Below the pieces are notes generated by a model, which saw only the letters and a program-made list of their open reading frames with translations, did no database searches and was not told the DNA's origin. 64,000 bases of DNA from Candidatus Borrarchaeum weybense (GTDB taxonomy: Archaea; Asgardarchaeota; Sifarchaeia; Borrarchaeales; Borrarchaeaceae): NCBI GenBank assembly GCA_019057385.1, contig JAHQJS010000007.1:288001-352000 (forward strand), read 5' to 3'. Of this stretch, positions 50,838 to 63,441 are shown piece after piece; position 1 is the first letter of the stretch; the number at the start of each line of letters is the position of its first letter. A program made the translations under genes and the position numbers.

Positions 50838-52325
50838 GTGGATTCAGTGATGGAATCAAAAAAAGAGGCATGTGGAGTTTGTGGTATTTACCTAAACGAC
50901 CCACAAGGTCAAGTATCTTTTCATATATACTGGTGTCTGTTAGCTCTACAGCATAGAGGACATGAATCCGCCGGCATGACTGTCTTTGACAATGGGCTTA
51001 AAACGTATAAGGATATCGGATTTGTTAAAGATATCTTTGACTCCAACACATCTAGTTTTGTTAAAGAAAAGCTCCGAAGACATGAACCCCATGGAAAAAT
51101 CTTAATCGAAGATATACAGGGGCATATTGGCATTGGGCACGTTAGATATGCCACACAGGGTCCCGATGTCTATGAGAACGTGCAACCGCTAGAAATCAAG
51201 TCGAATGGTTTCAAACTAGCGGTTGGCTTTAACGGTACGATTTCAAACTATTCTCACTTAAGAGGACAGTGCAGCAGTCTCTATCACCTAAAAACTACCT
51301 GCGACACCGAAATAATTGGTGAGTTTCTTTCTGAGGGACTCAAAAGAAATAATTTTGAAAAAATAAGTGAACTGGATGGCGCATATTCTGTAGTTGCACT
51401 AACAGATGATCAGAAAATAATATCGTTTAGGGATCCTTTAGGTCTTAGACCACTTAGTTATGGATTCGATGAGGACATGTTTGTTGTTGCTTCTGAAAGC
51501 TGTATATTGAATAAACTTATGGATAAAACTTATGTTTATGATGTCCAGCCTGGCGAAATGATTATTTATGACGGCAATAGGCTCAACAAACAACAATTAC
51601 CTTGTGAACACAAAGCTCATAAACATTGTATGTTTGAATGGGTATATTTCGCTCGACCAGATTCAAAAATTGAAGGAGTAATTGTCTTACAGGCTAGGAA
51701 GAATCTGGGTAAGATGCTAGCGAAAAGTTATGAGATGGATGCAGATATTGTAACACCTTTACCTGACGGAGGACGATTTGCCGCTAAAGGATTTTCAGAA
51801 GAATCAGGCATACCTTACGAAGAAGTGATCGTCAGAGATAGATTTTTCCCACAAAGAAGTTTTATTAAAAAAGGTCAAAAAAATCGAGAGCATATTGCTA
51901 AAGAAAAGATTTCGTTTGTTGATGACTTAATCGCTGGCAAAAAAATAATACTAGTTGACGATTCTATTGTAAGAGGCACTACAACTCAAAACATTGTAAA
52001 GAGGTTGCGAGAGAAAGGTGCACGAGAAGTACATCTTAGGATCTCTTGCCCACCGATAATTGCACCTTGCTTCTTTGGTATTGATTTTCCAACGTTTAGA
52101 GAATTATTTGTTAATAAACTCGGTATTACTCCAGATAATTACGATTTAGAAACAATAAATGAACGAGCACGAGAACACACAGGTGCAGATTCCCTTTATT
52201 ATAATTCAATTGAAAATTTAAAGCGAGCACTTGGCCTAAATGATATTTGTACGTCTTGTTTAGATGGAGTATACCCTTATGATTATTTGCCGTATCAATC
52301 TCTTGAACCATTTCTAAGGATATAA
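50838..52325 (+). CDS. purF: Amidophosphoribosyltransferase
   Basis: EACG, QHRG, GHVRY, CMFEWVYFARPDS and VDDSIVRGTT motifs. Confidence 0.95.
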   Translation: MDSVMESKKEACGVCGIYLNDPQGQVSFHIYWCLLALQHRGHESAGMTVFDNGLKTYKDIGFVKDIFDSNTSSFVKEKLRRHEPHGKILIEDIQGHIGIGHVRYATQGPDVYENVQPLEIKSNGFKLAVGFNGTISNYSHLRGQCSSLYHLKTTCDTEIIGEFLSEGLKRNNFEKISELDGAYSVVALTDDQKIISFRDPLGLRPLSYGFDEDMFVVASESCILNKLMDKTYVYDVQPGEMIIYDGNRLNKQQLPCEHKAHKHCMFEWVYFARPDSKIEGVIVLQARKNLGKMLAKSYEMDADIVTPLPDGGRFAAKGFSEESGIPYEEVIVRDRFFPQRSFIKKGQKNREHIAKEKISFVDDLIAGKKIILVDDSIVRGTTTQNIVKRLREKGAREVHLRISCPPIIAPCFFGIDFPTFRELFVNKLGITPDNYDLETINERAREHTGADSLYYNSIENLKRALGLNDICTSCLDGVYPYDYLPYQSLEPFLRI

Positions 52326-52348: not shown

Positions 52349-53734
52349 ATGGGTAAAGCAGTTTTGGTTATTGATAAAGGCGGAAGAGGTAACGCCATTG
52401 CTTATGCATTTGCAAAAAGTCCTCAAGTTTCCAGAGTTTATGTAACTCCTGGGAATGCAGGAAGTTCTATATTGGAAAAATGTCATCAATTACCTTTATT
52501 CGCCGAATCAGTAGATGAAGAAATTGAGGCAATGAAAAAATACGCATTGGAAAACAATATAGATCTGTCGTTTGTTGGTCCTGAAGGATATTTGTCTGCA
52601 GGAATTGTCGATGTATTTTTGGACGCGGATCTTGATATCGTAGGTCCTTCTCAAATGGCTACAGTACTGGAATCAAGTAAATGTGATACTAAGGACTTTT
52701 TGAAAAAAATTGGTGTTCCTATTCCGGAACATAAGAATTTTGACAATCCAGATGAAGCAAAAGAGTATGTAAAAGACTTCTACTCTGACAACCCTAACGA
52801 AAATCTTGTTGTAAAAGCAGATGGGCTTGCTGCAGGAAAAGGGTCAATTCCTTGCGATTCAAAAGCAGATACATTGAGTACAGTTGACGAACTTATGATC
52901 CTTAAAAAATTCGGTGATGCCGGAATCCGAGTTGATTTAGAGAGAAGATTGTACGGCGAAGAATTGATGTTTTTTGTATTTACAGACGGTAAAACTGTGA
53001 AGGCTTTAGAAGGTGCACAAGACTATAAACGCGCTTTTGATGATAATGATAAAGTAAATCCAAGATCTTTTGATGGGAAAAATCCTAATACAGGCGGTAT
53101 GGGAGGTTATTCACCTCATCCATGGTTAGATGAAGAACTAACCGAGAAGGTTATGAAACAGATAGCACTCCCTACTATAACAAGAATTCAAGATTATGAG
53201 AGTACACAATTTGGTAAATTGAATGGAGTTGAGTACAAAGGAATTATCTACTTTGGTCTAATGATTTGCAAAGAGGGAGACCAAAAAAATCCTTATGTAC
53301 TTGAGATTAATGTTAGAATGGGTGACCCAGAAGCACAAGTTATACTGCCACGGTTAAAAACAGATTTTTATGATATTTCTAGAGCAATTGTGGATGGTAA
53401 ATTGAACGAGATACATTTTGAGTGGGATCCTACATACCAGTTATGTGCATGTGCTGTAAGTGGAAGAATAGGTCGATATGAGGGTTATCCAGGAAAACAT
53501 CATACAAACCAAGAGATCCATGGTTTAGATGAAGTCGACAACAATTGTTTAGTTTTTCACAATGGTACTGCTTTTGATGAAGATGGGCAGATTTATACTA
53601 CTGGGGGTAGAGTTCTCACGGTCGTAGGCACAGGAAACAACTTAGAAGAAGCTAGGATACACACTTATGATAACCTAAAGAAAATTCGTTTTAGAGGAAT
53701 GCGCTATAGAAGAGACATTGGAAAAATCCTATAG
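52349..53734 (+). CDS. purD: Phosphoribosylamine-glycine ligase
   Basis: PGNAG, VKADGLAAGKG, PNTGGMG, EINVRMGDPE and GGRVL motifs. Confidence 0.95.
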   Translation: MGKAVLVIDKGGRGNAIAYAFAKSPQVSRVYVTPGNAGSSILEKCHQLPLFAESVDEEIEAMKKYALENNIDLSFVGPEGYLSAGIVDVFLDADLDIVGPSQMATVLESSKCDTKDFLKKIGVPIPEHKNFDNPDEAKEYVKDFYSDNPNENLVVKADGLAAGKGSIPCDSKADTLSTVDELMILKKFGDAGIRVDLERRLYGEELMFFVFTDGKTVKALEGAQDYKRAFDDNDKVNPRSFDGKNPNTGGMGGYSPHPWLDEELTEKVMKQIALPTITRIQDYESTQFGKLNGVEYKGIIYFGLMICKEGDQKNPYVLEINVRMGDPEAQVILPRLKTDFYDISRAIVDGKLNEIHFEWDPTYQLCACAVSGRIGRYEGYPGKHHTNQEIHGLDEVDNNCLVFHNGTAFDEDGQIYTTGGRVLTVVGTGNNLEEARIHTYDNLKKIRFRGMRYRRDIGKIL

Positions 53735-53781: not shown

Positions 53782-54888
53782 TTGATGAGAGAATTTATAG
53801 ACGAAAAAAAATATTTTTCTGATGTAGAAGGCCCATATTCGTTGAATGATAATGCCCTTGAAGTTGCAAGTTTGCTCATACGACCACATGGGCATGAACT
53901 CTTCAAGCAACTGAGTATATATGATGATTATCTTGTTGATTTAGAAAAAAAACCAAATTATAATTCAGGATGTACACTAGGACTTCTGTTACCTTTTTTT
54001 AAAGTATTTGGGGCAACAAACAACCTGTTGGAGTCAATTTCTTCAAAAAATGTTAATTTAATGACGGGGACAAGGAGTACTTTACAATTTCTAAGAGAAA
54101 AAATGGAATGCTACTTGATAAGTACCAGCTATGAACAGCATATCCATGCATTCTGTAAGGCTACGGATTTTCCTTTCGAAAATACAGTATGCACTAAATT
54201 AGACTTAGATAACGAAAAATTTAAACTTAATGGAAGGGAAAGTGACTGGCTTAAGAAACGGGCAGAAGAAATAGTATCGCTCCCTAAAATTAAGATTCCT
54301 ATAAATACTAAGAGTCGTGATGAGTTACCTGAGGATGTTTTAAGTTCCATTGAAAGATTAGACCAGATTTTCCTTGAAATGGAAAATGAATATTCGACTT
54401 CCTTTGAACTATTAAAAAGCGTAAATACTATTGGTGGATCGAAAAAGGAACAGGCATTACTCGAAAGAGCATCAGATGTTAGTAAAACTGTATACACAGG
54501 TGACAGTATTACAGACAGAGAAGCTCTTGGTCGAGTTAGAAAGGAAGGCGGATTGGCCGTTTCTGTAAATGGAGATATGTATGCAGTGAAAGAAGCTGAA
54601 ATAGGATGTATTATAGATAATACAATTTTAACATCTATTGTAGTAGATGCATTTTTTAACTCTGGGAAAGAAGGATTGCAAGATCTTGTTCATAATTGGA
54701 GTTATCATGGATTAAAAAAGGCAAAGGAAGATTTTCTAGTTACTCCAGAACTTATTAACCAGCTGATTAGTTTGTATCCGAAAAAACTTCCAGAAGTAGT
54801 CATTCTGACAGATGAGAACAAAGAAGAATTTGCAAAAAGAAGTTCTAATTTTGGAAAAAAATTGAGGGAAGGAAAGGCTCATGGATAA
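53782..54888 (+). CDS. HAD-like protein of the 'energy-converting hydrogenase A subunit R' (EhaR) family
   Basis: SDVEGPYSLNDNA, YDDYL, ISTSYEQ, GGSKK, GDSITD and SVNG motifs. Confidence 0.8.
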   Translation: MMREFIDEKKYFSDVEGPYSLNDNALEVASLLIRPHGHELFKQLSIYDDYLVDLEKKPNYNSGCTLGLLLPFFKVFGATNNLLESISSKNVNLMTGTRSTLQFLREKMECYLISTSYEQHIHAFCKATDFPFENTVCTKLDLDNEKFKLNGRESDWLKKRAEEIVSLPKIKIPINTKSRDELPEDVLSSIERLDQIFLEMENEYSTSFELLKSVNTIGGSKKEQALLERASDVSKTVYTGDSITDREALGRVRKEGGLAVSVNGDMYAVKEAEIGCIIDNTILTSIVVDAFFNSGKEGLQDLVHNWSYHGLKKAKEDFLVTPELINQLISLYPKKLPEVVILTDENKEEFAKRSSNFGKKLREGKAHG

Positions 54889-55840
54889 AAATAAAATAGA
54901 TTCTACTTATTGTGAGGCTTTTTATGGTTTGTATGTGAGAGTATTGGTTACTGCTGAGCGAGGGATTTATCCAGGAGATAGAATAGATCCGTATATAGAA
55001 AACGATGAACTGAGGTTTGCTGCTTACAGATCTACTTCAACACCAGCGACGGTAGTAGGTAGAACAGAAGCCGGAATTGAAGCTTGGGTACCGAAAACAC
55101 AGACTCCAGATGGCCGTGAGGGTGCCATTCTGCAATTTTGGATCATGTTAAATGAAAACAAACCATTAGAAAGTCAGATTGAAAAACTTTATCGCGAGTT
55201 TTCAATCCCAGTTCGCCAAGACATTCTTTCTTGCTATACAACGAGTTTATATGATTGGTTAAAACCTAGTGAAGGGATTGAAATTGTTGGAACAATAGAT
55301 ACAAGAAGATACATTGGTGATTGTGGGGGAGGCTATGAACGAGTTAATACTAAAACAATCGAAGTTCCTTTAATGGGAGGCCAAGATTTTTTTGTTGATA
55401 AGAAACTAAATGTAGGAAAGGGAGTATCGGGAGCAAACCTGTGGTTCTTCTGTGATTCAGTACTTTCTGGCAGAAAGGCTGGACGTGAAGCGGTAAAAGC
55501 CATCAGCGATGTTGAAGGTGTTATTACATCGTTCTATACTTGTCCATCTGGTTCAATGGTTGCAAACTACAAAGAGATTGGTCCGCCTACTAACTACAGA
55601 TTCTCTCCTACGTTGAAGAACGAAATTAAAGATTCTTTAGTTCCTGAAGGAATTGGAGCAATTCCAGAAATTGTAATCGATGGTATTTCAGTACAAGCTG
55701 TCCGGAATGCCATGAAAGTAGGTATTGAAAGCGTTGTTGACATGGAGGGTGTAAAAAGAATTTCTGCAGGGAATTATCAAGGGAAACTTGGACAAGTTAA
55801 ACTTGAACTAAGAGAAATAGTGCCAAATTTGTTTGAATAA
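54881..55840 (+). CDS. Formylmethanofuran:H4MPT formyltransferase-like protein (Ftr paralog, EhaS-like)
   Basis: DSTYCEAF, EAGIE..TPDGREGA, GVSGANL, EIVIDG and ISAGNYQGKLG motifs. Confidence 0.88.
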   Translation: MDKNKIDSTYCEAFYGLYVRVLVTAERGIYPGDRIDPYIENDELRFAAYRSTSTPATVVGRTEAGIEAWVPKTQTPDGREGAILQFWIMLNENKPLESQIEKLYREFSIPVRQDILSCYTTSLYDWLKPSEGIEIVGTIDTRRYIGDCGGGYERVNTKTIEVPLMGGQDFFVDKKLNVGKGVSGANLWFFCDSVLSGRKAGREAVKAISDVEGVITSFYTCPSGSMVANYKEIGPPTNYRFSPTLKNEIKDSLVPEGIGAIPEIVIDGISVQAVRNAMKVGIESVVDMEGVKRISAGNYQGKLGQVKLELREIVPNLFE

Positions 55841-56782
55841 GTGGTTTTGATGAGTTTTAGCGTTGTTGGATTCGCGGCAATCAATGAAGACAGGATAAGA
55901 TATGTTGATTATGAGGTAAAAGAGTCTGAAGTTTTATCTCGTGAATCTCCAGGAGAGTTGGAAAATGATGAAAAAGCTTTTCTTGGTGGTTCAGTAGTGA
56001 ATACACTTGTCGGTTTAGCAAAATTTGGATTTTCAGTAGCGGCTCTTGGAAAACTTGGAAACGATGAAACTGGAAATAGAGGCGAAAACAAATTAAAAAA
56101 CTACGGGATTGAATTCTTTGGCACCAGAGATTTACAATTCAATTCAAGTGTTGCTAGAATAGAAGTCGGTAGTAATAAACAAAGGAAAATAACAATTTAT
56201 CCGGGTTCTAATGATAGAATTGAGTGGGATGATGTAAATCTATACTTAGATTTAATAAGGAGTTCAAATCTCTTTCACTCATCTACGTTCGCTTGTGCGT
56301 ATAGCATGTCTTCATTAAAAACCCAGATCAAACTTGCTGAAGAATCAAATAAAATGAGTCTTAGTTTCGGTATGCTTTATTGTGATCTTTTCGAAAAGGA
56401 ACCATTATTAATAAAAAATCTATTGAAAGCTACTGATATTTTGATACTAAATGAAGAAGAAATTGAAAGGCTTGCAAACGAGAACTATGAAGAAGCAGCA
56501 AGGAGTTTGATTAGAAAATTCAAAATAGAAGTGATTGCGGTTACGTTAGGTGATAAAGGTTCGTATGTTGTTGGGAGAACAGAAGAACATTTCATTGAAT
56601 CTAGACCAGTAAACGTTATAGATACTACTGGTGCAGGTGATGCTTATTCTGCAGGATTTTTAGCTGCTTATTTGCGAGGAAAAAAATTAAGTATCTGCGG
56701 AATGTGGGGGAACAGAAACGCTGAAAGCTGTATAGGGACAAAAGGCGCAGTTGATTATCAAAAACCTGAAAAATTGAGTTAA
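55841..56782 (+). CDS. PfkB/ribokinase-family carbohydrate kinase (EhaT-like)
   Basis: GGSVVN, GKLGNDETG, LNEEE, VTLGDKG and DTTGAGDAYSAGF motifs. Confidence 0.92.
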   Translation: MVLMSFSVVGFAAINEDRIRYVDYEVKESEVLSRESPGELENDEKAFLGGSVVNTLVGLAKFGFSVAALGKLGNDETGNRGENKLKNYGIEFFGTRDLQFNSSVARIEVGSNKQRKITIYPGSNDRIEWDDVNLYLDLIRSSNLFHSSTFACAYSMSSLKTQIKLAEESNKMSLSFGMLYCDLFEKEPLLIKNLLKATDILILNEEEIERLANENYEEAARSLIRKFKIEVIAVTLGDKGSYVVGRTEEHFIESRPVNVIDTTGAGDAYSAGFLAAYLRGKKLSICGMWGNRNAESCIGTKGAVDYQKPEKLS

Positions 56783-56794
56783 TGTGGTTGTTTA

Positions 56795-59700
56795 ATGATT
56801 CACAGAATAAAAATTGGCTCCAAACTAGACGAAAAAGACGTTTTAGGAGAAAGTATAAAGAAAGAAATTGAAAGGTTCTTTCATTTAAAAATTGATTCTA
56901 TTTTAACCCGAAAGGTCTATTCAATAGATGCTAGCTTATCTGAGAAAGAATTGAATTTAATAAAACGAGATCTTCTTATAGATGCGATAACAGAATATTT
57001 ATGCGAAGAAGATATTTTTGATTGGTTAATTGAAGTAGGATATAAACCAGGAGTAACCGATAATGTTGCCAATACTTCAAAAAACATAGCAATCCCTGCG
57101 ATACTAAATAGACAACTCAAAGACGATGAACATGTTTGGACATCTACCCAATATCTAATTAATAGTAAAGAACTATCAGAGAACGATGTTAAAATTATCG
57201 GAACGAAACTCCTCGCGAACCCGATTATAGAAGACATAAAAATAGCAAGTTATGACGAAATAAAAAAGAAGAGCATTGAGTTTACAATTCCTAAAATTGA
57301 AGGAAAACAAGATATTAACATAAATGCATATAATTTAAATGTTAGTGACGAAAAACTCATTCAAATCAGTAATAAAGGCGTTCTTGCTTTAAGTTTAGAA
57401 GAAATGAAGACCATAAAAGATTACTTTAATAATGAAAATGTAATCACGGAAAGAAAAAAGATAGGAATGGATGAAGTATTTTATGGCAAACCTACGGATG
57501 CTGAATTGGAATGCTTGGCTCAAACATGGTCCGAACACTGCAAGCATAAAATATTCAACGCAATTATTCGATATAGTGACCTAGAAACTGGGACAACTGA
57601 AACCATCAATAGTCTCTTTGACACCTATATAAAGAACCCAAGTAATACAATTGGCGATAAATGGGGATGGGTAGCGTCTTCCTTTCATGATAATGCAGGT
57701 GCGGTTAAGTTTAATAACAGATTGTTGGTCGTAGATAAAATTGAAACACATAATTCCCCTTCAGCATTAGAACCTTATGGTGGCGCTATTACAGGAATAG
57801 TTGGAGTAAATAGAGACCCGCTAGGAACTGGAAAAGGCGCTAAATTAATGTTTAATGTATTCGGCTACTGTTTTGGAAGTCCATACACTGAAAAAGTGCC
57901 AGCAGGCGTCTTACATCCAAAAAGAATCAGAGATGGTGTCCATAAAGGGGTAATCGACGGTGGAAATCAAAGTGGCATTCCTTTAGTAAGTGGCTGGGAG
58001 TTTTTTGATAAGAGATACATGTTTAGACCAATCGTCTATTGTGGTACAATTGGTATCATGCCAGTTGAGATCAATGGTGAAGCGTCCCATCTGAAGAAAG
58101 CCGATCATGGTGATTTGATAATTATGGTTGGAGGGCGAGTAGGAAAGGATGGAATACATGGTGCGACATTTTCTTCAGCAGAACTTGATAAAGAATCTCC
58201 TGTTCAAGCTGTTCAAATCGGTGACCCAATTACACAGAAAAAAATGAGTGATTTCATATTAGAAGCCCGAGATTTAGGATTATACAAATGCATAACAGAT
58301 AACGGTGCGGGTGGTTTATCTTCTTCTATTGGGGAGATGGCTAGATATTGTAACGGATGTAAATTTGACTTAGAGAAGGTTCCATTGAAATATCAAGGGT
58401 TAGACCCTTGGGAAATACTAGTATCAGAATCACAAGAAAGAATGACATTAGCAGTTGAACCTGATAAAATCGAGCAATTTCTGGAACTAACTAAAAAAAG
58501 AAGTGTAGAATCTACAGTTCTTGGATTTTTTGAAAATTCTGGAAAATTTCATGTAACTTTTGGGAATAAGACAGTTGCTTATCTTGATATGAAATTTTTA
58601 CATGACGGTTTACCAAAAATGGAACTAGAAGCACTATGGAAAAGACCAATATTTGAAGAGCCTGAGTTTGAACAACCTCCTAATTTGAACGAGACGTTAG
58701 AAGAGATGTTGAAACGTTTGAACATATGTTCTAAGGAAGAAAAAATTAGACAATATGATCATGAAGTTAAGGGACTTAGCGTTATCAAGTTATTAGTGGG
58801 GGAGCAATGTGATGTACCCAGTGACGCAACAGTCTCCTTTCTTGAATATGGTAGTATGGAGGGCCTAGCAGTAGCTGAAGGGAAGAACCCCCATTATTCT
58901 GAGCTTGATACGTATCATATGACTGCATCAATTATAGATGAGGCAGTTAGAAGAATTATCGCGGTTGGGGGAAAATTACCTAGCAAAGATACTGTGTTTT
59001 ATGGTTTAGATAATTTCTGTTGGAATATCTCCACTCTAAATTCTGAGGACGGTATATATAAACTCGCTCAATTAGTTCGGGCAAATCAATCCTTAGCTGA
59101 TTTTTGTAAAGCGTTTAAAATTCCTTGTATTTCTGGAAAAGATAGCATGAAAAACGTTTGGAAACTAAGGGAGATAGATAATGGAACAGAAGTAGAAAGA
59201 ATAATTTCGATTCCACCTACACTAATGTTCTCTGCAAGAGCCAAAATAAATGACATTAGCAAAACTGTAACAATGGATGTAAAGAAACCAGATGATTTAG
59301 TGTATGTTGTGGGTTTAACTCTTGATGAGTTAGGTGGCTCTGAATATTATTCTTACATGGGCGAAAAACTTCGAGGTAAAAGATACTTAGGAAATAATGT
59401 TCCTAAAGTTGACGCTATACGTGCAAAAAAGATCTATCAAAGTATTAGTGATGCAACTGAACTAGAGCTTCTAAATTCTGTACATACTCCAACGATAGGA
59501 GGTTTGGGTATAGCACTAGCAAAAACCGCTTTTGCAGGTGGCTATGGAATGGACATCGAATTAACGAAAGTTCCTTATGAAGGGAAGATAAGAGATGATT
59601 TCATATTATATTCACAATCGAATAGTAGATTCATCATAACTGTTTCAACTGAAAAAAAGGAACAATTTGAAAGAATAATGGGAGATAATATTTATTCACA

Positions 59701-59818
59701 GATAGGAATTGTTACTCAAGATAAAAGATTGAAGGTTAAAGGATTAAATGGAAAGTATGTAATCGATTCAGATTTAGACAATTTAAAGAAAGCATGGAAA
59801 AGCACTTTAGGTCGTTAA
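56795..59818 (+). CDS. purL: FGAM synthase PurL with N-terminal PurS-like extension
   Basis: QTWSEHCKHK, ETHNSPS, DNGAGGLSS, SESQERM and SGKDSM motifs; 1007 aa. Confidence 0.95.
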   Translation: MIHRIKIGSKLDEKDVLGESIKKEIERFFHLKIDSILTRKVYSIDASLSEKELNLIKRDLLIDAITEYLCEEDIFDWLIEVGYKPGVTDNVANTSKNIAIPAILNRQLKDDEHVWTSTQYLINSKELSENDVKIIGTKLLANPIIEDIKIASYDEIKKKSIEFTIPKIEGKQDININAYNLNVSDEKLIQISNKGVLALSLEEMKTIKDYFNNENVITERKKIGMDEVFYGKPTDAELECLAQTWSEHCKHKIFNAIIRYSDLETGTTETINSLFDTYIKNPSNTIGDKWGWVASSFHDNAGAVKFNNRLLVVDKIETHNSPSALEPYGGAITGIVGVNRDPLGTGKGAKLMFNVFGYCFGSPYTEKVPAGVLHPKRIRDGVHKGVIDGGNQSGIPLVSGWEFFDKRYMFRPIVYCGTIGIMPVEINGEASHLKKADHGDLIIMVGGRVGKDGIHGATFSSAELDKESPVQAVQIGDPITQKKMSDFILEARDLGLYKCITDNGAGGLSSSIGEMARYCNGCKFDLEKVPLKYQGLDPWEILVSESQERMTLAVEPDKIEQFLELTKKRSVESTVLGFFENSGKFHVTFGNKTVAYLDMKFLHDGLPKMELEALWKRPIFEEPEFEQPPNLNETLEEMLKRLNICSKEEKIRQYDHEVKGLSVIKLLVGEQCDVPSDATVSFLEYGSMEGLAVAEGKNPHYSELDTYHMTASIIDEAVRRIIAVGGKLPSKDTVFYGLDNFCWNISTLNSEDGIYKLAQLVRANQSLADFCKAFKIPCISGKDSMKNVWKLREIDNGTEVERIISIPPTLMFSARAKINDISKTVTMDVKKPDDLVYVVGLTLDELGGSEYYSYMGEKLRGKRYLGNNVPKVDAIRAKKIYQSISDATELELLNSVHTPTIGGLGIALAKTAFAGGYGMDIELTKVPYEGKIRDDFILYSQSNSRFIITVSTEKKEQFERIMGDNIYSQIGIVTQDKRLKVKGLNGKYVIDSDLDNLKKAWKSTLGR

Positions 59819-59819
59819 A

Positions 59820-60623
59820 ATGAAACCAAGAGTTTTAGTTCCAGTTGGATATGGATTAAACTGTGAAGAAGAAACAGTTTACATATACAGATTACTGGGT
59901 GCAGAAGTAGATAAAGTTCACATCAACGACTTAATAAATAAACCGAAAATGCTAAGAGAATATCATGTAATTGATCTTATCGGTGGTTTTGTAGATGGAG
60001 ATCATATTACTGCTGGAATAATACACGCAAATAGATTAAGATATAATCTAGAAGAGGAACTTCAAGAGTTCATTCAATCAGGTAAACTTTTAATTGGGGT
60101 ATGTAACGGCTTTCAGACGTTGGTAAAAGCCGGACTCTTACCCGGATTTGATGATGATTATAAAACTCAAAGAGTTACGCTAATTTACAATGATTCCGGA
60201 AAATTTGAAGACAGATGGGTTCATCTTAGTGTAAATAAAGATTCAAATTGCATTTGGACAGAAGGTATAGAAAACCTCTACCTTCCAGTTCGACATGGTG
60301 AAGGAAAGATCAGAACCGATCCATCTGTTTTAGATGAATTAAATAGGGGTGACCAAATAGTCTTATTTTATACGGATCCAATTGATGGAAAACCAACTAT
60401 GGAATATCCCTATAATCCAAATGGCTCTAATATGGCTATTGCTGGGATTTGTGATCCAACAGGAAGAATTTTTGGGTTAATGCCACATAGAGAAGCATTT
60501 TGGTCACCTTATAATCATCCTAAATGGCATAGATTGAAACTTGACGGGAAATTACCTAGCGAAGGACCAGGTATACAAATATCAAGAAATGGAATTGAAT
60601 ACGTAAGAGAGCATTTAATTTAG
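59820..60623 (+). CDS. purQ: FGAM synthase glutaminase subunit
   Basis: GVCNGFQ, HGEG, YNPNGS and GLMPHRE motifs. Confidence 0.95.
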   Translation: MKPRVLVPVGYGLNCEEETVYIYRLLGAEVDKVHINDLINKPKMLREYHVIDLIGGFVDGDHITAGIIHANRLRYNLEEELQEFIQSGKLLIGVCNGFQTLVKAGLLPGFDDDYKTQRVTLIYNDSGKFEDRWVHLSVNKDSNCIWTEGIENLYLPVRHGEGKIRTDPSVLDELNRGDQIVLFYTDPIDGKPTMEYPYNPNGSNMAIAGICDPTGRIFGLMPHREAFWSPYNHPKWHRLKLDGKLPSEGPGIQISRNGIEYVREHLI

Positions 60624-60632
60624 TTAGATGGG

Positions 60633-60915
60633 GTCAATCACCCCCTACCAAGTAAGGGGGCTTGTTTCGTGAGGAACAAGAGTAATTGGTTGATTAGCCT
60701 AAGAGAGGTCATATAGTTTATGACGATATCTACGTTATCAGGAGAGTTAAAGAACGCACCAAGGGATGCTTCTCTAGTCCCTTGCTCTGTAAACGGTGGT
60801 TTAAACAGAGAGGAAACTCTCAGTGATCATCGTATAGTACTGACTGATAACCTTGGCGAAGAGAATCTACTCCCTTGGTGTTGGGAGCGGCGGGACTTGC
60901 GAGTACCCGTCATTA
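60633..60915 (+). ncRNA. HEARO / IscB omegaRNA
   Basis: GTCAATCACCC..GTTGATTAGCCTAAG..CTACGTT..GCACC..GGATGCTTCTCTAGTCC..GCTCTG..TTAAACAG..CAGTG..AACCTTGGCGAAGAGAA, in the order typical of HEARO; 3' end approximate. Confidence 0.8.
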
Positions 60916-61012
60916 AAACACACCTATGGATACCTACCCCTGTGCTCGCAGAAAGGGTAGAGTGTACAATCCATTCCCCCAACAAGCTGGGGGGTCTTCT
61001 TGGACGGAAGTA
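60633..61012 (+). mobile_element. Non-autonomous IscB-type IS200/IS605 element (380 bp) with the iscB ORF deleted
   Basis: Starts GTCAA + hairpin; ends with hairpin CCCCCAACAAGCTGGGGGG, then TCTT, then ATAA target; inserted between purQ and purM. Confidence 0.85.
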
Positions 61013-61018
61013 ATAAAA

Positions 61019-62134
61019 ATGCGATATTCAGACGTAGTGGATTACGATATTTTAGATCCAGTTAAAAGGAAAGCTTTAGAATTATTTCAATCAACATTTG
61101 GAACAATTGAAGATAGATTACGAATAAGAGTCGCCCCCGTTGGTGAAACCGCAGCTGTATTGGATTTTCTTGATTATGATTTTATGTTAGCGTTTAATGT
61201 TGAGGGACTTGGAACAAAAAATGTGATTGCAGATAGAATATATCAAGAATTAACTGATAAAAAAGAAATTGCTAAAAAAATGAAGGCTAAAGAAGCCTAC
61301 CGGTTTATTGGTCAAGATACTGTAGCTATGTCCCTTATAGATTTATTAGCAGTAGGTGCAGACCCAATTGCTTATGGAGATTTGATAACAGCAGGAGATT
61401 CTGATTGGTTCCAAGATCTTGAAAGGGTAGATGAGTTACTATATGGTTTTAAAGTTGCTGCAGAATTAGCAGGTTGTGCTATACCCTGCGGTGAAACCCC
61501 TACTTTACAAAATGTAGTGTATCCAGAAACCTTAGATTTAGCTGGTGCCTCTGTTGGTATCATTAAACCAAAAAGTCGTTTTATGTATGGCCAAAAGATA
61601 AAAAGTGGAGATTGTATCTATGGCCTTCCCAGCGATGGAATATGCTCAAACGGGGTTTCAAAAGCAAGAAAAATTGCTGAGAAATTACCTGAAGGATATT
61701 TCACAAAATTACCTAATGGTAGAGAATTGGGTCAGGAATTACTAACGCCTACACCTATTTATGTAAGACCAGTAATTGAAATGCTTGATCAAGGAGTAGA
61801 CTTACATTATATTGCGCCAATAACTGGACATGGATGGAAAAAAATTGCAAGAGCGCGATTTCCATTCACATATGTCATTGAAAGTGTACCCGAACCACCT
61901 TTATTATTTCAAGCTCTAGTTGAATTTGGGAAAGAATACGGCTTCAATGTTTCTGACGAAGAAAACTATCAAGTATGGAATATGGGAGTTTTTTTGGTAT
62001 TGATAGCACCCACAGAAGCAGAAGAAACAATAAAACAAATTGCAGAAAAATATAAAAGTGAAATATACAAACTAGGTTTTGTAGATGAAGGAGAAAAGCG
62101 GATTTTGATTAAACCTAAAAATATAGTATATTAA
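61019..62134 (+). CDS. purM: AIR synthetase (FGAM cyclo-ligase)
   Basis: EGLGTK, GETP, DLAG, SNGVS, PITGHG and WNMG motifs; native ATG 61019 (the ORF-track start at 60926 lies in the inserted element). Confidence 0.93.
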   Translation: MRYSDVVDYDILDPVKRKALELFQSTFGTIEDRLRIRVAPVGETAAVLDFLDYDFMLAFNVEGLGTKNVIADRIYQELTDKKEIAKKMKAKEAYRFIGQDTVAMSLIDLLAVGADPIAYGDLITAGDSDWFQDLERVDELLYGFKVAAELAGCAIPCGETPTLQNVVYPETLDLAGASVGIIKPKSRFMYGQKIKSGDCIYGLPSDGICSNGVSKARKIAEKLPEGYFTKLPNGRELGQELLTPTPIYVRPVIEMLDQGVDLHYIAPITGHGWKKIARARFPFTYVIESVPEPPLLFQALVEFGKEYGFNVSDEENYQVWNMGVFLVLIAPTEAEETIKQIAEKYKSEIYKLGFVDEGEKRILIKPKNIVY

Positions 62135-62253: not shown

Positions 62254-63441
62254 ATGCGAAATAGAAAGATCCTAATGATTCCAGGCCCTTCTGAGGCTCA
62301 TCCTGATGTTTTAAATGTATTATCACAACCAGTTATGCCCCATTATGGAAATGAATGGGGGGACATATATGAAGATACTTGCCAACAACTCAAAAAAATC
62401 TTCAACACAAAACAATCAGTTATTATTCTTGCTGGACCTGGAGGCTTAGGTTTAGAACTGTCTGTTGCAAACTTAATTGAACCAGGCGATAAAGCAATTG
62501 TTGTCCATAATGGGTTTTTTGGAGAACTATATGGACGAGTAGTTGAATTATACGAAAGTATGCCTGTTGTCACAACAAGAAATTATGGAGAGGCCGCTGA
62601 TGTTAATTCAATAAAGGAAAAGTGTGAGCAAGAAGATATTAAAGCAATTTTCCTGGTTCATAATGAAACATCAACAGCTGTAGCAAATCCAGTGAAAGAA
62701 ATAGGTGAGATAGCAAAAAAGAATGGTATATTGTATGCTGTTGATGCAATTTCATCTTTTGGAGGAATGGAGCTTCGATGTGACGATTGGAACATTGATG
62801 TATGCGTAGGCTATGCAAGTAAAGCGCTAGGCAGCATTATGGGCGTTACTCCAGTGATGCTCAGTGAAAAAACATGGGAAGTAGCTAAAAACAGAAAACA
62901 GCCCATTAGAGGTAGATATTTGAATCTCAATGTATGGGAGGAATACATAGAAGAATTGACAGAAATAGGGCATCCATTTCCTGCATCAGTGCCAACTTCA
63001 GTAGTACTGGCACTAAGAAAAGCAATTGAATTAGCGCTAGAAGAAGGACTTGAGAATAGATATAAGAGGCACGCAATTTCAGCTAAAGCCGTTCGCGCAG
63101 GAATTCGAGCACTTGGTTTACAATGTCTGCCAAAAGAAGAAATCGCTTCTGACACGGTTACAGCCTTCAGATTACCAGATGAATTAAATGAAGACGAGGT
63201 TAGAAGAATCATTAACGGGAAGTATAATATCATGGTTTCTCTCATGAAAAATCTAATTGGTCTTAATGGCATTAGAATTGGACATATGGGTGTGACTGCC
63301 TCACAGTTTTATGTGATACCTACTCTAGCCGCTTTAGAACAAACTCTCTCTTCACTTGGTTTTAAAACAAAACCTGGGTCTGCAGTTATAGCAGCAATGG
63401 AAGTATATGGACAACACAACGCAATACAACAAGCAAAATGA
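62254..63441 (+). CDS. Class V PLP aminotransferase (alanine/serine-glyoxylate type)
   Basis: LMIPGP, VHNETST, VDAISS, ASKAL and RIGHMG motifs. Confidence 0.92.
   Translation: MRNRKILMIPGPSEAHPDVLNVLSQPVMPHYGNEWGDIYEDTCQQLKKIFNTKQSVIILAGPGGLGLELSVANLIEPGDKAIVVHNGFFGELYGRVVELYESMPVVTTRNYGEAADVNSIKEKCEQEDIKAIFLVHNETSTAVANPVKEIGEIAKKNGILYAVDAISSFGGMELRCDDWNIDVCVGYASKALGSIMGVTPVMLSEKTWEVAKNRKQPIRGRYLNLNVWEEYIEELTEIGHPFPASVPTSVVLALRKAIELALEEGLENRYKRHAISAKAVRAGIRALGLQCLPKEEIASDTVTAFRLPDELNEDEVRRIINGKYNIMVSLMKNLIGLNGIRIGHMGVTASQFYVIPTLAALEQTLSSLGFKTKPGSAVIAAMEVYGQHNAIQQAK

Follow-up and report, generated by a model that had tools for sequence, protein, structure and literature searches.

An operon without a known enzyme for the third step

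Which enzyme formylates glycinamide ribonucleotide (GAR), the third step of purine biosynthesis, in the Asgard archaeon Candidatus Borrarchaeum weybense? PurN is the folate-dependent and PurT the formate- and ATP-dependent GAR transformylase. The question is raised by a 64-kb stretch of its contig JAHQJS010000007.1 (hereafter the window), which carries a purine operon in which purD and purL are separated by three genes: one for an EhaR-like protein of the haloacid dehalogenase (HAD) fold, one for Ftr2, a divergent paralogue of formylmethanofuran:tetrahydromethanopterin (H4MPT) formyltransferase, and one for a PfkB kinase. Our comparison of genes and genomes indicates that these three genes probably form a module for step 3, with Ftr2 as the candidate GAR formyltransferase. 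Comparative genomics across four phyla gives this assignment good support, although it is unproven.

Eight genes lie in the same direction between positions 50838 and 62134, in the order purF-purD-[EhaR-like HAD]-[Ftr2]-[PfkB kinase]-purL-purQ-purM. This order had been proposed in an earlier reading of the window (the original prediction) and agreed with the list of open reading frames (ORFs) and their Pfam and NCBIfam matches. The ORF coordinates also agreed with the tight spacing proposed for the middle genes: HAD and Ftr2 overlap by 8 nt, Ftr2 and PfkB abut with 0 nt between them, and 12 nt separate PfkB from purL. The genes are as follows.

50838..52325, + strand: purF, amidophosphoribosyltransferase, step 1 (TIGR01134, 372.9 bits, above the cut-off of 350)
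52349..53734, + strand: purD, GAR synthetase, step 2 (TIGR00877, 443 bits, above the cut-off; GARS_N, GARS_A and GARS_C domains)
53782..54888, + strand: EhaR-like HAD-fold protein, 368 amino acids (family of 1Y8A/AF1437; HAD motifs; source names)
54881..55840, + strand: Ftr2, divergent paralogue of formylmethanofuran:H4MPT formyltransferase, candidate GAR formyltransferase (PF01913 and PF02741)
55841..56782, + strand: EhaT-like PfkB kinase (PF00294, 157.7 bits)
56795..59818, + strand: purL with a PurS-like N-terminal extension, step 4 (TIGR01736, 469.6 bits, below the cut-off of 525.75; AIRS, AIRS_C and FGAR-AT linker domains)
59820..60623, + strand: purQ, glutaminase subunit, step 4 (PF13507, 262.8 bits)
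60926..62134, + strand: purM, step 5 (AIRS and AIRS_C; TIGR00878, 168 bits, below the cut-off of 236.35)

The HAD ORF opens with TTG at 53782 and has an ATG one codon further, at 53785, which is probably the start codon.

The lack of purN and purT in the cluster, on which the original prediction was built, holds for the genome as a whole (4.18 Mb in 8 contigs, rated 100% complete with 7% contamination). The whole genome gave zero matches to PF00551, the PurN search, and no PurT was found in a search of the same scope. The top PurT-like matches were considered as a hidden PurT and rejected, being MfnD-like, CPS-like and PylC ATP-grasp proteins. The absence of purH and purP from the cluster was also correctly described, yet two PurP genes and a stand-alone PurH N-terminal domain (inosine monophosphate cyclohydrolase) are present elsewhere in the genome, all outside the operon, so that no gap exists at 5-aminoimidazole-4-carboxamide ribonucleotide (AICAR). 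Since PurP and the cyclohydrolase domain are present and PurN and PurT are not, step 3 is the sole formylation step without a known gene; this statement covers the formylation steps, and purE, purC and purB were not searched for in this genome. Action of the trio at the AICAR step, offered in the original prediction as an alternative, is unlikely given the presence of PurP.

That some archaea have no known GAR transformylase, as the original prediction stated, is documented. A GAR formyltransferase could not be found in Archaeoglobi, in four species including Methanothermobacter, Methanosphaera and Methanobrevibacter, or in M. kandleri (Brown et al. 2011, PMC3261824). An uncharacterised Ftr2 clade has been described from the anaerobic methanotrophic archaea ANME-1 and ANME-2a/b, Archaeoglobales, M. 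kandleri and Methanothermobacter (Chadwick et al. 2022, PMC9012536); a separate part of that paper reports ANME-1 to be without PurN and PurT, and the two observations are not tied together there. Our literature search found no paper linking EhaRST or Ftr2 to GAR formylation, and the assignment appears to be unpublished.

Linkage of the three genes to purine genes

A search with the HAD protein as query (12-row alignment) gathered 80 loci, mostly from Bathyarchaeia. The order purF-purD-HAD-Ftr2-PfkB recurs in these loci, and purQ-purL-purM lies beside it in the large majority, usually facing it. Close homologues came from metagenome-assembled genomes (MAGs) of Promethearchaeota/Lokiarchaeota, and the nearest named locus, that of Ca. 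Borrarchaeum yapensis, has an identical gene order with 81-95% identity over the operon genes. The Asgard families differ in arrangement. The small-genome family f3 has purQ-purL-purF-purD-HAD-PfkB-purE-purB-purM-purP with Ftr2 elsewhere, family f19 has purQ-purL-purF-HAD-PfkB, and family f10 has purD and HAD with a gene for a HEAT protein between them. Taken with the f13 arrangement described below, these orders show HAD, Ftr2 and PfkB each to be independently linked to pur genes. The linkage expected by the original prediction was thus found in many independent arrangements (about 100 loci in or beside pur operons). At one locus (L124), a gene of 354 codons that follows EhaR and Ftr2 was considered as the kinase and rejected; its product is not a PfkB protein and had zero Pfam matches.

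The names attached to these proteins come from another context. EhaS is Ftr-like and EhaT ribokinase-like, and both are encoded at the end of the Methanothermobacter eha operon (Kaster et al. 2011, PMC3087415), as the original prediction had stated. EhaR, EhaS and EhaT, the last genes of ehaA-T, belong to the same three families (HAD-like, Ftr-like and ribokinase-like) as the proteins in the window, a likeness that consists of shared families and source names. In Methanothermobacter they follow membrane hydrogenase genes, whereas here they lie between purD and purL. Taken at face value, the database names would assign the three proteins to the energy-converting hydrogenase Eha, as subunits or as accessory factors, and in Methanothermobacter ehaS and ehaT are in fact co-transcribed with ehaA-R (PMC3087415). 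We consider this explanation exceedingly improbable. An Eha subunit is expected to be encoded within the eha membrane hydrogenase operon and co-transcribed with it, but the neighbours in the window are purD and purL, and both here and at about 100 other loci the genes are in or beside pur operons rather than hydrogenase operons. Moreover, each of the three proteins is a member of a family of soluble enzymes and retains its active-site motifs, and PurN-like partners accompany the HAD protein in bacterial contigs as well as in Thermoplasmatota.

Properties of the three proteins

The Pfam signal of the single HAD protein was weak (PF12710, E = 0.007), and its homologues appear in their source records as 'energy-converting hydrogenase A subunit R' or 'HAD hydrolase'. 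A profile of 45 family sequences matched PDB entry 1Y8A, the solved but uncharacterised A. fulgidus protein AF1437, with 245 bits, and an AlphaFold model (mean predicted local distance difference test, pLDDT, 95.9) superimposed on 1Y8A with Z 37.7 and a root-mean-square deviation of 2.0 over 304 residues. Membership of the 368-residue protein in the EhaR/AF1437 HAD family is solid. The next structural matches, in the range Z 15-19, were phosphoserine phosphatases of the SerB type (Z 18-19; SerB itself 18.7), MtnX and the phosphotransferase ThrH. The core is Rossmann-like, about 200 residues align with these enzymes, and none of the catalytic elements (nucleophilic Asp, Ser/Thr motif, Lys, DxxxD motif) is lost. 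Motifs I-IV read D14-x-E16-G-P, S114-T-S-Y, K222 and G240-D-S-I-T-D245, of which D14-x-E16, S114-T-S, K222 and G-D241-S-I-T-D245 are invariant or nearly so in the 45 sequences. The protein differs from SerB, MtnX and ThrH in three respects: Glu stands where motif I usually has its second Asp, a further domain is attached at the C terminus, and the chain closes with a conserved Arg-rich tail whose last residue is Gly. This tail, S..RK.VRG..IG.LG (residues 354-368 of the window protein), has a near-invariant terminal Gly in the EhaR family and is retained in the PurN-like and PurT-like fusion proteins that contain an EhaR domain.

Ftr2 has the two-lobe architecture of its family (PF01913, 79.8 bits; PF02741, 155.7 bits; both above the cut-offs). 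Both lobes of the fold are shared with solved Ftr (1FTR/2FHJ, 1M5S, 1M5H) and with FhcD (6S6Y), and matches to solved Ftr reached 108-127 bits. The known chemistry of Ftr is formyl transfer to and from a primary amine. Residue E263 lies in an I-x-E-I-V stretch that is invariant across 30 family members, aligns with the Glu of YEIVI in 1M5S and occupies what we take to be the position of Glu252 in FhcD. This conserved glutamate of FhcD has been proposed to stabilise the oxyanion (PMC6926001). Ftr2 scored below the curated Ftr cut-offs (NF002554, 240.6 against 297 bits; TIGR03119, 167.7 against 292.6). It is not this genome's orthologue of the one-carbon (C1) pathway enzyme: the canonical Ftr1 is a separate gene (G000:C6:7959-8717), and Ftr scores in Asgard archaea split into two classes. 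A complex prediction for Ftr2 with EhaR gave a score of 0.00, which is uninformative in either direction.

The closest solved relatives of the PfkB protein are the adenosine kinase 3UBO and the nucleoside kinase MJ0406 of M. jannaschii (2C49). The catalytic motif DTxGAGD is present as DTTGAGD in the alignment with 3UBO, and the protein falls short of the ribokinase equivalog (TIGR02152, 106.6 bits against a cut-off of 299.65). As judged from the alignments, the catalytic motifs are intact in HAD, Ftr2 and PfkB alike.

Co-occurrence with PurD, PurN and PurT

About 480 genomes were compared: 131 from Asgard archaea, 151 from Thermoplasmatota and 201 around a Ca. Methanoliparum genome. The Asgard genomes, each at least 80% complete, were searched for HAD, Ftr2, PurN, PurT and PurD. 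Ftr matches among them were bimodal, with Ftr2-type matches at 179 bits or more (24 genomes, 41-100% identity) and Ftr1-type matches at 146 bits or less. PurD was present in all 24 genomes with Ftr2, and Ftr2 was present in none of the 45 PurD-negative genomes, many of which have Ftr1. Ftr2 therefore tracks purine synthesis and not the H4MPT pathway. The HAD protein accompanied Ftr2 in 21 of the 24 genomes, in one of them as a gene split over contig ends.

Among PurD-positive Asgard genomes, Ftr2 was present in 15 and absent from 7 of the 22 that have neither PurN nor PurT, compared with 9 and 55 of the 64 that have one or the other. The odds ratio for Ftr2 against the absence of PurN/PurT in this PurD-positive set is about 13, not corrected for relatedness.

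The sample around Ca. Methanoliparum was searched for HAD, PurN and PurT, with PurD outside the search. Long PurN-containing frames, as in haloarchaeal PurN-PurH fusions, suggest that this third phylum is Halobacteriota. PurN or PurT was found in 8 of the 86 HAD-positive genomes, the other 78 having neither, and in 109 of the 115 HAD-negative genomes, the other 6 having neither. HAD was thus present in 78 of the 84 genomes without PurN and PurT, a count uncorrected for kinship. All five closed HAD-positive genomes of this phylum have both an Ftr2-type and an Ftr1-type gene, neither of which adjoins HAD, and HAD was adjacent to PfkB in 5 of 13 loci.

The HAD protein has exchangeable formyltransferase partners

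In Thermoplasmatota, HAD was found in 23 of 151 genomes, all 23 of which have PurD. A PurN-like gene lies directly upstream of HAD in 13 of 14 loci, and canonical PurN was present in none of the 23 HAD carriers, compared with 116 of the 128 other genomes. One MAG of the Methanomassiliicoccales has PfkB, a PurN-like gene and HAD in that order, with a 4-nt overlap and a 3-nt gap, and the PurN-like gene next to HAD is the sole PurN-type match of the genome. Two other Thermoplasmatota (G207:C70:83453-85403 and G258:C2:228273-230226) have purD directly followed by a PurN-like gene of 274 codons that scores 57-60 bits against the PurN model; no EhaR-like HAD protein was found in either at E <= 1e-20.

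Searching 1.8 billion representative proteins for fusions of the HAD domain yielded a bacterial protein in which a PurN-like domain, with the N/H/D catalytic residues retained, is joined to an EhaR HAD domain. In two further fusions the HAD domain is joined to a PurT/PurK-like ATP-grasp domain, the motif NEISYRPDDAG of which aligns with NEVSPRPHDTG of PurT. Around the PurT-like-EhaR fusions lie restriction-modification genes and genes for small winged-helix-like proteins; no pur genes were seen there. On a metagenome contig, a PurT-like protein has a gene of its own (NF006766, 68 bits), which ends 9 nt before that of a different member of the HAD family.

The HAD protein is the usual constant partner, and the formyltransferase is swapped between Ftr2, a divergent PurN-like protein and a PurT-like protein. 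PurN and PurT share with Ftr2 the proposed reaction and pathway position but no homology. It is their divergent relatives that replace Ftr2 beside the same HAD protein in other lineages; canonical PurN and PurT act alone, and HAD is hardly ever encoded in a genome that has either of them. Because HAD is paired with enzymes of three unrelated formyl donors, it would act on the acceptor or product side and not on the donor. The PurN-like and PurT-like classes of partner most closely resemble true GAR transformylases, which points to GAR as the acceptor.

The same observations bear on the idea that the substrate is a different ribosyl amine, or that the module belongs to another pathway, for example cofactor biosynthesis or AICAR formylation; the connection with pur genes would then be indirect. 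GAR is a predicted acceptor, the HAD-formyltransferase pair lies away from pur genes in many genomes, and PurN and the module occur together in some. We nevertheless hold this explanation to be improbable. The AICAR step is covered by PurP in the genome of Ca. B. weybense and in the Asgard g3 operon. A role in methanopterin or methanofuran synthesis is disfavoured because the module occurs in bacterial contigs and because, in Thermoplasmatota, a PurN-like protein replaces its Ftr-type member. In addition, the PurN-like and PurT-like partners have bona fide GAR transformylases as their closest relatives, and the complementarity is specific to PurN and PurT.

Weighing the assignment

Several observations weigh against a step-3 module as described. 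The counts span related genomes and are uncorrected for phylogeny, and two of the three genome sets carried no lineage labels. All 9 Asgard genomes with both Ftr2 and PurN or PurT belong to family f10, in which PurN was found in 9 of 12 Ftr2 carriers and in 10 of 12 non-carriers, with no anti-correlation, and the third phylum adds the 8 genomes in which HAD coexists with PurN or PurT. In Asgard family f13 (L126 and L127, from closed 2.8-Mb genomes), the order is purS-purQ-purL-purF-purD-Ftr2 with no adjacent HAD or kinase, and the sole HAD protein is a very distant one of 404 residues encoded elsewhere in the genome. The 7 PurD-positive Asgard genomes that lack Ftr2 as well as PurN and PurT leave the gap incompletely closed. 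Finally, the search for close relatives of the trio's PfkB found one in only 6 of the 23 HAD-positive Thermoplasmatota and none in the other 17.

Two side observations concern these genomes. In f13, the gene next after Ftr2, in the place of HAD and kinase, encodes an M20/DapE-like peptidase with no evident link to the module. The seven genomes without any of the three enzymes are G085, G089 (family f21), G012, G093, G110, G007 and G123, and include both sampled members of f21; a further solution to step 3 may exist in such genomes, for example in f21.

Because f10 has PurN equally with and without Ftr2, the module is not a strict replacement for PurN. The anti-correlation of the module with purN and purT anticipated by the original prediction was seen in most lineages (Asgard archaea overall and two other phyla) but failed within f10, the one Asgard family in which carriers of the module routinely have purN. 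The central proposal, in which the Ftr paralogue carries out the GAR formylation that has no other known gene, is strengthened by the pur linkage, by the restriction of Ftr2 to PurD-positive Asgard genomes and by the anti-correlation of HAD in two phyla, and is weakened by the overlap with PurN in f10. The genes present, their synteny and co-occurrence, the way they complement PurN/PurT and the intact motifs together make Ftr2 with HAD the best candidate for the step.

The kinase is an accessory member, since no close relative was found in most HAD-positive Thermoplasmatota and it is missing from the f10 and f13 arrangements. A compulsory, ATP-driven loop is therefore disfavoured, unless another kinase substitutes, and the cycle of dephosphorylation, formylation and rephosphorylation that the original prediction put forward as a possibility is doubtful as an obligatory one in view of those Thermoplasmatota and of the f13 arrangement.

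These exceptions would fit a reading in which Ftr2 alone formylates GAR and HAD and the kinase are a salvage or overflow pair, with HAD dephosphorylating surplus GAR or formyl-GAR (FGAR) and the kinase recovering the ribosides. Asgard f13 has purD-Ftr2 without a close HAD or kinase beside it, no close PfkB was found in most HAD-carrying Thermoplasmatota, and EhaR-PfkB pairs exist without an adjacent formyltransferase. We regard this division of labour as unlikely, though less so than the alternatives above. HAD accompanies Ftr2 in 21 of the 24 Asgard genomes that have it, EhaR has the PurN-like gene as its immediate neighbour in all but one of the 14 Thermoplasmatota loci and shares a single bacterial protein with a PurN-like domain, and genomes with canonical PurN almost never carry HAD, which a general salvage pair would not predict.

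Proposed mechanism

In the mechanism that we propose for the step-3 module, Ftr2 would transfer the formyl group from N5-formyl-H4MPT or formyl-methanofuran to the primary amine of GAR, or of a close derivative, yielding FGAR for PurL. Family membership suggests that the donor is linked to H4MPT or methanofuran, and the genes for Ftr1 and an MfnD-like protein in this genome make it plausible that both cofactors are present. Exchange of the formyl group between formyl-H4MPT and the amine of methanofuran is near equilibrium (4.4 kJ/mol; PMC6926001), so that transfer to the amine of GAR should be feasible, pulled by PurL. Purine C8 derives from C2 of acetate in M. stadtmanae but not in M. smithii (labelling quoted in PMC3261824); we infer that an H4MPT-linked route can be reconciled with the labelling quoted by Brown et al., the reconciliation being our own.

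The roles of HAD and the kinase are speculative. HAD may carry out phosphoryl transfer at the ribose-5-phosphate end of GAR or FGAR, either hydrolytically or through a phospho-enzyme that hands the phosphate back. A real role in phosphoryl transfer is favoured by the full catalytic set and by its place on the phosphoserine phosphatase/ThrH branch. The PfkB protein, nucleoside-kinase-like and optional, would probably re-phosphorylate a riboside form of the intermediate.

A bolder version would make this a third route for step 3 built on HAD, the usual partner of Ftr-, PurN- and PurT-type formyltransferases. The HAD Asp would take the 5'-phosphate of GAR, the partner would formylate the bound riboside, and the phosphate would be returned in the manner of a phosphomutase or ThrH; PfkB would rescue riboside that escapes, and EhaR, EhaS and EhaT would be purine enzymes fed by Eha-driven formyl-methanofuran. 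We rate this version as unlikely, about on a par with the salvage pair.

Other features of the window and the genome

The purL product has 1007 residues, of which the first ~230 are extra, with a weak PurS match at residues 124-150; its sequence has the look of PurS fused to PurL. Around the 300 nt that separate purQ from purM (60624-60925), G/C-rich hairpins were noted at 60641-60660 and 60975-60994. A scan with bacterial-type promoter and terminator models gave hits at chance level; such models are not relevant to an archaeon. After purM, a class-V aminotransferase gene (pyridoxamine-pyruvate or aspartate-glyoxylate type, below the cut-offs) lies at 62254-63441, and a homologue of it also borders the trio in a locus from Bathyarchaeia (L090).

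Elsewhere in the genome, a gene for PylC (3-methylornithine-lysine ligase; L007:676-1875, on G000:C7) scored 325 bits against a curated cut-off of 248, a match that hints at pyrrolysine biosynthesis in an Asgard archaeon. A full-length gene for the RNA-guided nuclease IscB (361 bits; L012:2423-3564, on G000:C6) directly follows one of the purP genes.

Significance

The proposed module names genes for the step reported missing in Archaeoglobi, the order of Methanothermobacter and Methanopyrus (PMC3261824, 2011) and in ANME-1 (PMC9012536, 2022). Organisms with that gap make their own purines. Our results place Asgard archaea among the groups with this gap and offer a candidate solution for them too. 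The folate-type version, in which a PurN-like protein is paired with HAD, is testable in E. coli without exotic cofactors. If the assignment is true, the labels 'Eha subunit R/S/T' and 'Ftr', which have been copied widely between annotations, would need to be changed. Furthermore, if the donor for Ftr2 is H4MPT or methanofuran, purine C8 would be directly tied to the archaeal C1 pool, a link held to be unlikely by Maden-type arguments, as cited in PMC3261824.

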